From a virus, in IMG/VR virus record IMGVR_UViG_3300002835_000068, positions 1 to 64,000 of that record: a stretch of DNA of 64,000 bases; one strand, given 5' to 3'. Below are positions 5,379 through 18,178 of the stretch, piece after piece. The notes beneath the pieces are model-generated. The model saw nothing but the letters and a program-made list of their open reading frames with translations. It made no database searches and had not been told where the DNA came from. The first letter of the stretch is position 1. The number at the start of each line of letters is the position of its first letter. The position numbers and the translations under genes were made by a program.

Positions 5379-7976
5379 ATGGCTGCTGAATTTATTGATG
5401 ACACGGTAGATGGCTCTGGGTTGTACCCAACCAAGATACCTGGCTATGAAGATGCAGCCGATATTCAGGAAGCATTAAGACTTTATCATTATGGATCAAG
5501 TGTTATCCCAACAACAAGTGATTTAAATGGAACAGCAACAAGCATAAATACAAAATCAGTTGCAGGGCATCTAAAATCCCTGTCTAATACAATTGCAACA
5601 GAGGTAACTAATAGAACGACTGCTGATACAAACCTTCAAAACCAAATAGACGGTCTTTCAAGCACACTTGCTGCCCAAACAGGGGTAGTTACAAAAACCA
5701 CAAACTTTATGCTGTCTCTTGAAGAAGTATCAAAGACAATTCTTTTATCAACATCAACAAATATGAATCTTACTATACCATTAAACTCATCTGTAGCCAT
5801 TCCAGTAGGTTCTAGATATAACCTAATTGAAATGGGATCAGGAGTAACAACTTTTGTACCAGCATCAGGTGTAACAATTAACAGCAAAAATGGACAAATG
5901 TTTATTGATGAACAATATGGACAAGTAACTTTACTAAAAGTTGCAGAAAATTCTTGGGTTGCTTATGGAGATATTTACGAAGGTTCAAATGAACAAACAT
6001 TCTTTAACGTAACATATAATTGTGGCTTTGCAACAAACTGTCCTCCAAATACAACTCACACTGGTTCATACACAATACCTTCAACTACTCCAACACCTGG
6101 AGAAGGAATGGGTGGATTCTTTGGGTATTATGTTCAGTCAGATGCAAACTGTTCAATTCCAACTCAATACCCTAATTACTCTGCAGGACAAACAATTGCA
6201 TGTAATGGTAACCTAACAATAACAGCAGTCTTTGCTGATCCCCCAGCCGTGACACCACCTGTTACTCCAGCAGTAACACCTGCTGTAACACCAGCAGTAA
6301 CCCCAGCAGTAACCCCAGCAGTAACACCTGCTGTAACACCAGCAGTAACACCAGAAGTTACTCCAGCAGTTACTCCAGGAGTCACTCCTGTTACCCCTGT
6401 TACTCCAGTAACACCAGTAACACCAGTAACACCTGTTACCCCTGTTACACCCGTAACACCTGTAACTCCACCAGTTACACCAGTGACACCACCAGTTACA
6501 CCGTCAAACTGTAATGAAGATTGGAGTCTAATTCCACAGTCACAGTGTGAAGAGTGTGGTTTAGTTTGGGCTCCAGAGTTTGGTGAATGTATTTCTACTG
6601 TAACTCCTGTAACTCCTGTAACACCAGTTAACTGTGATCCAGACTGGAGTTTAATTCCTCAGTCACAATGTGAAGCCTGTGGATTAGTGTGGGCACCAGA
6701 GTTTGGTGAATGTATTTCTACCGTAACACCTGTTACACCCGTTACTCCTGTTACTCCCGTAGATTGTAATGAAGACTGGAGTTTGATTCCTCAATCACAG
6801 TGTGCTGCTTGTGGTTTAGTTTGGAGTGCAGAGTTTGGAGAATGTATTGAGATTCCAGTTACACCAGCAGTTACTCCAGTTACACCTGTAACACCAGTAA
6901 CTCCTGTAACACCAGTTACCCCTGTAACACCAGCAGTTACACCACCTGTAACACCAGTTACACCTGTAACACCTGTAACTCCAGTAGATTGTTCAGACAC
7001 AAGTTTGCTTAATTCAAGTCAGTGCGCTGCATGTGGTTTAGTATGGAGTCCAACCTTTGGTGAATGTGTCGAGCCATCTGTAACTCCACCAGTAACTCCA
7101 GTTACACCTGTAACACCAGTAACTCCTGTAACACCAGTTACCCCTGTAACACCAGTAACTCCTGTAACACCAGTTACCCCTGTAACACCAGCAGTTACAC
7201 CACCAGTTACACCACCAGTAACTCCACCAGTAACTCCACCAGTTACACCACCAGTAACTCCACCAGTAACTCCACCAGTAACCCCTAGCGATCCAACATG
7301 CGCTGATTTTGGAGAGTTAGGAACTTGGCCTAACTGTTATCCACCTGGAGAAAACCCTACAGTAACTCCAGCAGTAACCCCAGAAGTAACCCCAGGGGTA
7401 ACACCTGGAGTAACGCCTGGAGTAACGCCTGAAGTAACCCCATCAGTAACACCTGGAGGATTCAGTTTTACTCCAGTGTTTATGAGATCTCTAGCGCCTA
7501 TGACTAAGGTTAGAATGGCAGACGGATCTTTGAAGGATGCAGAAGATATTTATGTAGGAGATGTGCTTATGTCCGTAGAACTTCCAGGATTTGCAGACTC
7601 TTATACAACAGAAGAACTAATGTCTTGGGTATCAACTCAAAACATAACCGAACTACCTTTGACAACTACGACTGTCAATAAAGTAGAAGTTTATCCTTCT
7701 GCACAGGTTATATCTGTAAATGAAGACGTATTTTCTCCAAACCACTTAATCTTAATTAAGAGAGATCAAGAAATATCAATGAAGAAAACATCAGATCTTC
7801 TAATAACAGACTTAGTTTGGGACCTTGAATCAGCGGGATGGAAAGAAATAACACTATTAGAAATACACGATTACAACCACACAGTTATCACCATAAATTG
7901 TGAACCAAATGACTTATTCTTTACACAAGGTGCTTTGACACATGATGGAAATCAATCACAACCTATTCAAGAATAG
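5379..7976 (+). CDS. Fibre-like virion protein with (VTP)n tract, four Cys modules and C-terminal Hint domain
   Basis: Fibre-type N-terminus, divergent B-repeat, Pro/Thr repeats, Hint blocks [13 protein letters not shown] / SPNH / [11 protein letters not shown]. Confidence 0.85.
6249..7454 (+). repeat. Coding tandem repeats [11 protein letters not shown] with four CxnCxxCx10C modules (6510-6590, 6633-6713, 6765-6845, 6990-7067)
   Basis: Direct reading of translation; DNA repeats vary at synonymous positions. Confidence 0.95.
7488..7946 (+). other. Hint (hedgehog/intein) domain copy 1, 153 aa
   Basis: Block [14 protein letters not shown], block B SPNH, blocks [15 protein letters not shown]...LTHD. 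Confidence 0.85.
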
Positions 7977-7991
7977 TGTATAATTTTATAT

Positions 7992-8237
7992 ATGACAAGT
8001 CGTATAGAAAAAATAAAAGAAATAATTGAAGCCAATAAAGCATCAGCAGTAGGCCCATTAGACATATTAAATCCAAATACAGAGTGGGTAGACGATGATT
8101 TATATAATGAAAGGTATTCCTTATGCCTATCTTGTCCAGAATTAATAAATTTAACAAAACAGTGTAAAAAATGTGGCTGTTTTATGACGGTAAAGAGTAA
8201 GATGAAGATAGCAACATGTCCGCTAGGAAAATGGTAA
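7992..8237 (+). CDS. Six-Cys small protein (DUF6171-like); paralog of 1056-1262
   Basis: CLSC...QCKKCGCFMTVK...TCPLGKW; TATAAT 7 nt upstream (leaderless). Confidence 0.8.
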   Translation: MTSRIEKIKEIIEANKASAVGPLDILNPNTEWVDDDLYNERYSLCLSCPELINLTKQCKKCGCFMTVKSKMKIATCPLGKW

Positions 8238-16550: not shown

Positions 16551-16573
16551 TAAAAAATTAAAGGAGATTAACT

Positions 16574-18178
16574 ATGTCAAAACAAGCAGGTAGAATGAGC
16601 CAGTCGTCAAACGACTTCCTGGCTCCATACGCACCAACCATAGGAACAGCAACAGATGTTGGAACTAACCGTCCATATAACAATGGTGCAGCGACAGTAA
16701 CATTTACTGCCACTGGTCCAAACGCAGCAGATTCTTTTACAGTTTATGCTGTTGAAGATCCAACCAAAACTGCAACTGGTGCATCATCTCCTTTAACAGT
16801 TACTGGTCTTTCATCAGCAACCAACTATACATTTAAGGTATACGGAACAAACACAGCAGGTGGCCGTGGATCTGACTCAGCAGCATCAAATCAGATCACA
16901 GCAACAACTGTTCCACAGGCACCATCTTTAGGAGCAATAACAGTCTCATGCTCTGCTCGTGCCTTGAATGATGGACTTGTAACAGTTGCAATGACAGCAA
17001 ATGCAACTGGAGGAAAAGCAATCTCTGGATACTATGCAGTTTCTAATGGTGGACAAAATGCTTCTTCAGCATCCTCTCCAGTTAGCGTTACTGGTTTATT
17101 GTCAGCAACAAACTATACTTTCCAGGGAAGAGTTTCTAATGCAAATGGAAACTCTGAACTAACCGCTTCTTCTTCTGCAGTAACTGTAACAACAGTTCCA
17201 GGACAGGTTACAGCAGTTTCAGCATCATCACCTTCAGCAGGAGTAGACAGAATTACCTGGACAGCACCATCAAACGGTGGTTCAGCAATTACTCAATACA
17301 ACTGGGTTTCATCTGATGGAAAATCTGGAAGCACAGCAGCAACTTCTATTGATATTTCTCAAGAACAGGGAACTGCACAGACTTATACTGTTACTGCAGT
17401 TAATGCTTGTGGAGCAGGGCCAGCATCTGGTGCTTCAAATAGCATAACAACAACATTTTCATTCGTCCCATTCGGAGTGTTTGGATTCTCCCCATTCGGA
17501 GTGTTCTCGTTCTCTCCATTTGGAGTGTTCTCGTTCTCTCCATTTGGTTTCTCCCCATTCGGAGTGTTCGGTTTCTCCCCATTCGGATTCTCACCATTCG
17601 GATTCTCTCCGTTTGGATTCTCACCATTCGGATTCTCACCGTTCTCATTCTCACCGTCTGGATTCAGTTTCACACCACGCTTCATGGCATCGCTTGCACC
17701 AATGACAAAGGTCAGAATGGCAGACGGATCTATGAAGGCTGCAGAAGACGTTTACGTCGGAGATGTACTAATGTCTGTAGAACTTCCAGAGTTTGCAAAC
17801 TCTTACACAACAGAAGAATTGATGGCTTGGACATCAACGCAAGATATTGCAGACCTAACGCTAACTACCACAACAGTTAATAAAGTAACGATACATCCTT
17901 CTGATAAAGTAATTAGCGTTAATGAAGATGTCTTCTCTCCAAACCACCTTATATTGATAAAGAGAGACGCTACGGTATTCATGTGTAGAGCAGACAACCT
18001 AACTCCTACAGACCTAATTTGGGATTATTCTACCAATGGATGGGCAGAAATATCAGTACTCGAAATGCATGATTATGATCACACAGTTATTACTATTAAC
18101 TGTGAGCCTAACGACCTATTCTTTACACATAGTGCACTAACGCACGACGGTAACGAATGGAACCCAAATCAAGCATAA
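16574..18178 (+). CDS. Triple fibronectin type III protein with (FSPFG)n tract and C-terminal Hint domain
   Basis: FN3 motifs (VTGL..ATNYTF.V...N..G), Phe/Pro/Gly repeats, Hint domain. Confidence 0.85.
   Translation: MSKQAGRMSQSSNDFLAPYAPTIGTATDVGTNRPYNNGAATVTFTATGPNAADSFTVYAVEDPTKTATGASSPLTVTGLSSATNYTFKVYGTNTAGGRGSDSAASNQITATTVPQAPSLGAITVSCSARALNDGLVTVAMTANATGGKAISGYYAVSNGGQNASSASSPVSVTGLLSATNYTFQGRVSNANGNSELTASSSAVTVTTVPGQVTAVSASSPSAGVDRITWTAPSNGGSAITQYNWVSSDGKSGSTAATSIDISQEQGTAQTYTVTAVNACGAGPASGASNSITTTFSFVPFGVFGFSPFGVFSFSPFGVFSFSPFGFSPFGVFGFSPFGFSPFGFSPFGFSPFGFSPFSFSPSGFSFTPRFMASLAPMTKVRMADGSMKAAEDVYVGDVLMSVELPEFANSYTTEELMAWTSTQDIADLTLTTTTVNKVTIHPSDKVISVNEDVFSPNHLILIKRDATVFMCRADNLTPTDLIWDYSTNGWAEISVLEMHDYDHTVITINCEPNDLFFTHSALTHDGNEWNPNQA
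17456..17689 (+). repeat. Coding repeat tract: 8 exact FSPFG plus variants
   Basis: FSFVPFGVFGFSPFG...FSPFSFSPSGFSFTPRFMA. Confidence 0.95.
17690..18148 (+). other. Hint domain copy 2, 153 aa
   Basis: [13 protein letters not shown]...SPNH...LFFTHSALTHD; colinear with copy 1. Confidence 0.85.

Follow-up and report, generated by a model that had tools for sequence, protein, structure and literature searches.

C-terminal Hint domains on two fiber-like proteins of an uncultured tailed phage: a viral family predicted to process itself

Why would a tailed phage end two of its fiber-like proteins with the same small domain, and what would that domain do to the protein that carries it? The question is raised by IMG/VR record IMGVR_UViG_3300002835_000068, the whole 103,272-bp genome of an uncultured tailed phage, of which positions 1 to 64,000 were analyzed here and are called the window below. 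Two genes of the window, gene 1 and gene 2, close with colinear modules of 153 amino acids (aa) that an initial annotation had read, from the letters alone, as a duplicated and noncanonical Hint domain. The Hint assignment is confirmed by the present analysis and widened to a large viral family, for which a function in protein processing is plausible and stays a prediction.

Fold and catalytic residues of the two copies

The last 171 aa of the two gene products align by BLASTP without a gap, with 125 of 170 residues identical (E 7e-97). Within the 153-aa core, running from Ser1 to the terminal Asp, there are exactly 39 differences and no gaps, for 74.5% identity; this recount agrees with the number first given by hand, and each core forms the C terminus of a fiber/adhesin-like open reading frame (ORF). 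Of the codons compared, 66 are the same in both copies, 59 show synonymous and 46 nonsynonymous differences, and the nucleotide identity is 71%. The NG86 method of counting nonsynonymous (dN) and synonymous (dS) changes gave a dN of 0.20 and a dS of 2.1, the latter saturated, and thus a dN/dS ratio of approximately 0.09, in keeping with the purifying selection proposed earlier. Judged from these comparisons, the Hint pair arose long ago, by duplication or conversion, and has been subject to strong purifying selection. Protein and family-profile searches of the whole 103,272-bp record revealed no further Hint copies beyond these two.

Structure prediction against Hint families had been suggested as a check, and a Hint fold is indeed predicted with high confidence. 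The AlphaFold2 model, made from an 83-sequence family alignment, has a predicted local distance difference test score (pLDDT) of 91.5 and a predicted template modeling score of 0.86. Foldseek returned 49 matches in the PDB at E values of 1e-3 or lower, and all those shown were Hint domains, the top ones at a probability of 1.00. The best match was BIL2, a bacterial intein-like (BIL) domain of the BUBL1 polyubiquitin-like locus of Tetrahymena thermophila (E 1e-8). The BIL domain of Clostridium thermocellum (2lwy) gave a TM score of 0.81 on the target, and other matches included the Ssp DnaB, gp41-1, and RecA mini-inteins as well as the Hedgehog structures 1at0 and 6tyy. A family profile compared with PDB sequences pointed to the same relatives, namely, BIL2 (6y75, E 1.1e-11) and 2lwy (E 5.5e-11), with E values from 1e-11 to 1e-8 for BIL and intein chains overall. 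A PDB search with a single window sequence gave no match, and the window domain by itself reached only Hom_end_hint in Pfam, below the cutoff (E 0.002) and over its first 25 residues. Pfam matches among the 83 family members were to Intein_splicing (28), Hom_end_hint (21), PT-HINT (13), Hint (6), Hint_2 (5), and Vint (2), and the top structural matches in BFVD were to proteins of phages that bear the names "Hint domain containing," "PASTA," or "FN3." The Hint fold and Hint homology of both copies are established by these models and alignments. A predicted complex of three Hint copies, as for a trimerizing, chaperone-like role, scored 0.00, which weighs neither way.

The motif reading in the initial annotation also stands. 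Both copies begin with Ser1, carry S-P-N-H in block B, have Thr at block F position 4 (F:4) and Asp at position 13 (F:13), end in T-H-D, and are followed by Gly at +1 within a 9-aa tail. The same reading of the catalytic motifs is valid across the 172 members that could be aligned.

A viral family with two catalytic types

The profile built from the two copies found at least 305 representative clusters (50% identity) at an E value of 1e-3 or lower, 79 of them at 1e-10 or lower, and the match lay nearly always at the extreme C terminus of proteins of 150 to 2100 aa. Catalytic-residue statistics were taken from the 172 aligned members. Position 1 is Ser in 118 and Cys in 53. Block B reads (S/T)-x-x-His, with the His present in 171 members. 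A block F Glu is found in 163, F:13 is Asp instead of the usual His in 161, and F:4 is Ser, Lys, or Thr instead of Asp. The next-to-last position is occupied by His (119), Tyr (34), or Phe (14), and the terminal residue is Asp in 106 and Asn in 62, together 168 members. Ser1 is paired with a terminal Asp in 106 of 118 cases, and Cys1 with a terminal Asn in 52 of 53. In a tree, the Ser/Asp and Cys/Asn types are separated by essentially one deep split (support, 99), with Ser/Asn lineages basal within the Ser clade. The likely order is therefore from Cys/His-Asn through Ser/His-Asn to Ser/His-Asp, so that the Ser/Asp type would be derived within a BIL-like Cys1/His-Asn family. We considered the covariation of position 1 and the terminal residue as a sign of mechanistic coupling and rejected it, because the tree shows mostly that single split.

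The domain stands at the very C terminus in all 80 loci of the Ser/Asp type. Among the aligned members of the Ser/Asp clade, the +1 residue is Gly in 44 and Ser in 47, Ser accounting for about half of the clade. Among 79 loci of the Cys/Asn type, 68 ORFs stop within 9 residues past the domain and the others within 20 to 82. Some residues always follow: every protein has at least 1 to 3 residues beyond the terminal Asp or Asn, the median tail is 6 aa long, and neither the sequence nor the length of the tail is conserved (3 to 24 aa or more). In the Cys1/His-Asn loci (L089 to L168), 79 ORFs end inside their locus, and 47 of these stop at the end of the profile match, with ...T-H-N-K or ...T-H-N-x-K; the C-extein in those 47 consists of one or two residues, of which Lys is the last. 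A few other ORFs in this set bear Cys-rich extensions of 20 to 80 aa.

In front of the nucleophile, the 40 residues are of low complexity throughout the family (F, 16%; G, 15%; P, 15%), built from units such as FSPFG, FTPFG, FGAFG, PFFP, and poly-Pro. Nearly every residue of the linker at 17450 to 17662 of the window, as of those family-wide, is F, G, P, S, T, or A. Farther toward the N terminus, the partners are FN3, PASTA, DUF5977, PKD, and CBM domains, collagen-like repeats, and also Cys modules.

The family is essentially viral, because a search of 185,579 prokaryote species genomes yielded only two short contigs of metagenome-assembled genomes, one of which belongs to the Lake Mendota series; both probably represent phage DNA caught in binning, and there was no sign of a cellular reservoir of the Ser/Asp type in that set. 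In IMG/VR, 277 stretches carry the Ser/Asp type and at least 141 the Cys/Asn type, and nearly all ORFs of the latter stop a few residues after the domain. A tblastn search with the window domain against 50,697 phage records gave no match, and homologs in cultured phages were reached only when more canonical Cys/Asn or Ser/Asn members served as the query. When gene 1 was compared by blastn with GenBank phages, the matches were confined to repeat tracts and were discarded. The cultured carriers include Yersinia phage fHe-Yen9-02, whose gp333c (L085:1825-3267) joins collagen-like repeats to a Cys1...His-Asn Hint domain with a 10-aa tail and adjoins two tail fiber genes, lying upstream of both. 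Homologs were also found in approximately 48 Erwinia jumbo phages, in one of which, Yoloswag, the gene is named "putative tail fiber protein," and further in Dickeya phages and in Phage NCTB, as a "large intein domain protein." Altogether there are approximately 60 cultured-phage records, almost all from Erwinia and Dickeya jumbo phages, in which the protein is a collagen-like "virion structural / tail fiber" protein under a generic annotation, with the Hint domain unannotated. Literature searches for C-terminal Hint or BIL domains of phage fiber proteins found none in the library covered, and returned only true inteins in terminase, ribonucleotide reductase, and similar genes.

Predicted self-cleavage and its alternatives

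In Hint domains, residue 1 and the block B Thr and His together make an N-terminal ester or thioester (PMC4031507, PMC7765530). BIL domains have no +1 nucleophile, and cleavage accounts for most of their products (PMC4031507, PMC7765530), although those of type A are able to join their flanks once Asn has cyclized (PMC4031507). On this background, we take as the most likely reading, and as moderately probable, that each copy in the window is a catalytically intact, BIL-like autoprocessing domain that ends a fiber/adhesin-like virion protein and is shed after an N-to-O acyl shift. Once the domain has folded, Ser1, aided by the block B His, would attack the peptide bond that joins it to the preceding Arg or Ala; the resulting Ser1 ester would be resolved, most simply by water; and the 18-kDa Hint domain would leave with its tail, so that the mature fiber protein would end in the repeat linker at ...FSFTPxFM followed by Arg or Ala. 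In the Ser/Asp clade, the block F Asp and the terminal Asp may lie near the active site, where they could serve as the general base toward the nucleophile that resolves the ester. The form with Ser and His-Asp would have descended from a Cys/His-Asn, type A BIL-like ancestor of the same viral family. The fold, the conservation of the catalytic residues, the C-terminal placement after a flexible linker, and the strong purifying selection are the observations to be explained, and self-cleavage of the Hint domain is predicted from them.

Several points weigh against this reading. Three features suggest that chemistry at the C-terminal junction matters too, and hydrolysis at the N-terminal junction alone would account for none of them: the terminal Asp or Asn is almost invariant, a tail beyond it is never absent, and many Cys/Asn members end in ...HN-K or ...HN-x-K. 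The oxy-ester formed by Ser1 is less reactive than a thioester, and with neither the Asp usual at F:4 nor the His usual at F:13, these domains could differ in both rates and mechanism. Finally, the junction residues are modeled with little confidence, at a pLDDT of approximately 62 for residues 1 to 10.

The nearest known systems place these domains without matching them. Type A BILs, for which the likeness was measured against the single solved C. thermocellum domain (2lwy), are likewise mini-domains of the Hint fold without an endonuclease, with a nucleophile at position 1 and T/S-x-x-H in block B; they too lack a conserved +1 nucleophile and occur in variable proteins of the surface or secreted type, away from conserved enzyme sites. 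The Cys/His-Asn clade of the phage family looks like them, a terminal Asn being found in all but one of its 53 Cys1 members. The window copies differ in having Ser1 and not Cys1, His-Asp and not His-Asn, and Asp at F:13, and the phage domains differ as a whole in being viral and always at the extreme C terminus, with a tail of a few residues behind and F/G/P-rich repeats in front. Class 1 inteins with an atypical C-terminal Asp or Gln have blocks A, B, F, and G in common with the phage domain, and a few inteins tolerate Asp as their final residue (PMC4031507). The phage domain, by comparison, lies outside conserved host-protein sites, lacks a real C-extein and a homing endonuclease, and, in the window copies, has Gly at +1 and a His-Asp end. 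The copies in the window are accordingly filed by their residues as a separate variant within the Hint superfamily, outside both type A BILs and inteins, because they lack the His-Asn end of the former and the insertion site and +1 residue of the latter.

Hedgehog/Hog proteins show the same layout, with a cargo followed by a C-terminal Hint domain that removes itself through an N-terminal ester or thioester, and their fold matches (1at0, 6tyy). The phage domain, in contrast, has no sterol-recognition region, with nine residues after the Hint domain, has Ser in place of Cys, and keeps an intein-like His-Asp/Asn end. PT-HINT proteins differ in their toxin domain, which is not found downstream here, and the 13 PT-HINT matches among the 83 members reflect common Hint motifs only. 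Peptidase S74 chaperone domains of phage tailspikes and fibers and the autoproteolytic domain of Nup98 are also self-cleaving C-terminal modules with a Ser nucleophile. They are functional analogs only, since their folds are unrelated to the phage Hint domain: S74 acts on phage fibers, and Nup98 follows FG repeats, the nucleoporin repeats that the F/G/P-rich linker ahead of the Hint domain resembles. The window proteins had no S74 or S59 match in Pfam or PHROG.

The closest match of all leads to the first alternative, in which an external nucleophile would resolve the ester at Ser1 and the fiber would become covalently ligated through its new C terminus; candidate acceptors would be amines of other virion proteins (Lys or N-terminal), a cell wall amine, a sugar, or a lipid. 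BIL2 of BUBL1 (6y75, 6tmm) is the best match in both structure and sequence, likewise lacks a +1 nucleophile, and is reported to join the C terminus of its N-extein to Lys of other proteins by an isopeptide bond (PMC8616854). It differs from the phage family in being eukaryotic, with Cys1, a His-Asn end, and ubiquitin-like domains on both sides, and the profile alignment sets its F:13 His opposite the family's Asp. Other features lean the same way: the gene 1 protein carries at its N terminus a domain normally found at the distal C-terminal end of a fiber, which makes C-terminal anchoring topologically sensible; the PASTA and FN3 partners suggest envelope binding; and the invariant block F Asp, with the Glu, could activate a nucleophile as Asp46 is taken to do in Hedgehog. 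However, no adduct-recognition region follows the Hint domain but just the unconserved 9-aa tail, the present observations fit hydrolysis equally, and BILs studied to date give mostly cleavage products (PMC4031507). We regard such transfer as unlikely. Slightly more doubtful still is the specific proposal that the Hint domain is a single-use ligase, in which the Ser1 ester, or the Cys1 thioester in the sister clade, reacts with an amine of a virion protein or the host envelope and so fixes the fiber or adhesin covalently. The Lys-ending tails of one or two residues in the Cys/Asn clade would then be part of the same chemistry, and the conjugation would need neither an energy source nor a sortase, like the ubiquitin-like transfer by BUBL BIL2 and the cholesteroylation by Hedgehog.

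The initial annotation had stated that the domains cannot splice normally. This holds for class 1 splicing, given Gly at +1, and does not hold in general, as BILs of type A can ligate although no +1 nucleophile is present, and Asp or Gln replaces the terminal Asn for cyclization in some inteins (PMC4031507). Because of these precedents, and because Ser occupies +1 in about half of the Ser/Asp clade, we keep tail ligation or C-terminal cleavage in view as an improbable route, in which the terminal Asp would cyclize and free the tail, and the amine of Gly+1 would attack the Ser1 ester to give the N-terminal part joined to the tail. The terminal Asp or Asn of 168 of 172 members and the ever-present tail speak for it, as does a +1 residue that is either unhindered (Gly) or nucleophilic (Ser). 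Nonetheless, tails this short and so variable in sequence and length would have no obvious function once spliced on, the penultimate His that assists cyclization has given way to Tyr or Phe in 41 of the 106 members of the Ser/Asp type, and Asp cyclization is poor in general. Equally improbable, in our estimate, is a retained noncatalytic module whose residues are kept for folding or binding: Hint-fold domains without processing activity do exist, and AXH is among the weak matches, but the conserved residues are exactly the catalytic set, the Ser/Cys swap at position 1 is typical of a nucleophile, and the strictly terminal placement after a flexible linker fits a leaving group.

If self-cleavage holds, it would be a second widespread route to mature phage fiber and adhesin proteins, besides the S74 intramolecular chaperones, and one with the scale of hundreds of clusters in freshwater viral contigs plus approximately 60 cultured jumbo phages. 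The combination of Ser1, block F Asp, and terminal Asp, without the F:4 Asp and F:13 His, amounts to a natural experiment in Hint chemistry and might yield small self-cleaving tags that form oxy-esters. Should an external nucleophile take over the ester instead, virus assembly or adsorption would gain its first case of covalent attachment by a Hint domain. With a 153-aa domain and cultured relatives, the question is directly testable.

Pre-junction segment, gene parts, and neighborhood

The likeness of the two copies begins at (G)FSFTP, nine codons 5' of Ser1, and stops with the tail, the flanks beyond being unrelated (Table 1). The upstream element FSFTPxFM had been proposed to move with the domain as a recognition element. 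The first part of that proposal is borne out, since a segment of 8 to 12 residues travels with the domain between paralogs in three phage lineages; FSFTPxFM itself is not conserved across the family. In each of these lineages, paralogs with unlike linkers have identical residues before the nucleophile: (P/G)FSFTPxFM(R/A) before Ser in lineage A, which comprises the window and loci L006 to L011; FGFSPARGPGYY before Ser in lineage B; and AYTFAPNK before Ser in lineage C. By these alignments, the copied or homogenized unit is the junction together with the Hint domain and the tail, and the segment in gene 1 looks like the leftover of an FSPFG/FTPFG-type linker, now attached to one of (P)VTP repeats. 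Transfer of the segment fits coadaptation of the residues from -1 to -n with the active site, and it also fits recombination breakpoints that fell by chance within repeats. Three related phages (IMGVR_UViG_3300042542_002102, 3300044612_000880, and 3300042462_000099) each have two Hint-ended fiber genes approximately 10 kb apart, and in these phages the Hint copies are closer within a lineage than to their positional counterparts in the other lineage. This within-lineage likeness points to repeated duplication or gene conversion, as read from the sequences.

Table 1. Parts of gene 1 and gene 2, with positions in the window
Feature	Position	Strand	Basis or remark
Gene 1, 865 aa: N-terminal tail fiber-like part, long linker, C-terminal Hint domain	5379..7976	+	ORF, PHROG
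Gene 1 linker: low-complexity (P)VTP repeats broken by four Cys-rich modules	6237..7460 (approximate)	+	Translation
Gene 1 pre-junction segment FSFTPVFMR (residues -9 to -1)	7461..7487	+	Common to copy 2; remaining linker differs
Hint copy 1, 153 aa	7488..7946	+	AlphaFold2 model, Foldseek PDB, profile vs PDB, family statistics
Copy 1 Ser1	7488-7490	+	
Copy 1 block B His	7743-7745	+	
Copy 1 Asp at F:13 position	7911-7913	+	
Copy 1 penultimate His	7941-7943	+	
Copy 1 terminal Asp	7944-7946	+	
Gene 1 tail, 9 aa, GNQSQPIQE, Gly at +1	7947..7973	+	
Gene 1 stop codon	7974-7976	+	
Gene 2, 534 aa: FN3 repeats, FSPFG-type repeat tract, C-terminal Hint domain	16574..18178	+	ORF, Pfam
Gene 2 F/S/P/G-only repeat tract (FSPFG units), immediately 5' of the junction	17450..17662 (approximate)	+	Translation
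Gene 2 pre-junction segment FSFTPRFMA (residues -9 to -1)	17663..17689	+	
Hint copy 2, 153 aa	17690..18148	+	Alignment, family statistics, tree
Copy 2 Ser1	17690-17692	+	
Copy 2 block B His	17945-17947	+	
Copy 2 Asp at F:13 position	18113-18115	+	
Copy 2 His-Asp end	18143-18148	+	
Gene 2 tail, 9 aa, GNEWNPNQA	18149..18175	+	
Gene 2 stop codon	18176-18178	+	

The N-terminal 200 aa of the gene 1 product resemble the C-terminal ends of phage tail fiber and minor tail proteins (phrog_8780, phrog_21510, phrog_18179, and phrog_16053; E values from 6e-11 to 9e-5). The four Cys-rich modules of its linker, of approximately 30 aa each with (P)VTP repeats between them, fall at 6500 to 7200 and gave only weak zinc finger-like matches in Pfam. 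The FN3 repeats of the gene 2 product match Pfam fn3 with an E value of 1.3e-9.

The window has a GC content of 38% and a siphovirus-like gene set of portal, protease, major capsid protein, a 3116-aa tape measure protein, and minor tail proteins, the portal sharing 47% identity with its counterparts in large Streptomyces phages; within the window, a terminase large subunit was not recognized. Both Hint genes are located in the tail fiber gene cluster. Upstream of gene 2 lie two tail fiber-like genes (12871 to 14463 and 15006 to 16550, the latter with an Mtd_N domain), and downstream follow a 232-aa ORF, ribonucleotide reductase, a 2-oxoglutarate (2OG) oxygenase, and a 1235-aa ORF. This module order recurs in most of the 80 related loci compared, and gene 2 is the copy kept in synteny across those viral contigs. 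Gene 1 lies in a fiber gene region that is more variable than the surroundings of gene 2.

Directly 3' of gene 1, at 7992 to 8237, is a gene for an 81-aa Cys-rich DUF6171 protein (phrog_13558) that co-occurs with a gene 1-type Hint protein in 16 related loci. The 232-aa ORF (18234 to 18932) that adjoins gene 2 on its downstream side co-occurs in 22 of the 80 related loci and had no match in Pfam, PHROG, or NCBIfam; its W-H-D-H-G ... H-G-Y-Y pattern hints at a putative cupin or 2OG oxygenase-like enzyme. The 1235-aa ORF (22319 to 26026), likewise without a match in Pfam and PHROG, stands just 5' of the portal gene and is kept in 34 related loci. At 8216 to 10527 and 21794 to 22303, around the two Pro-rich Hint proteins, lie an ORF of glycosyltransferase type, another of 533 aa, and a 2OG-Fe(II) oxygenase (PF13640, E 3e-11).

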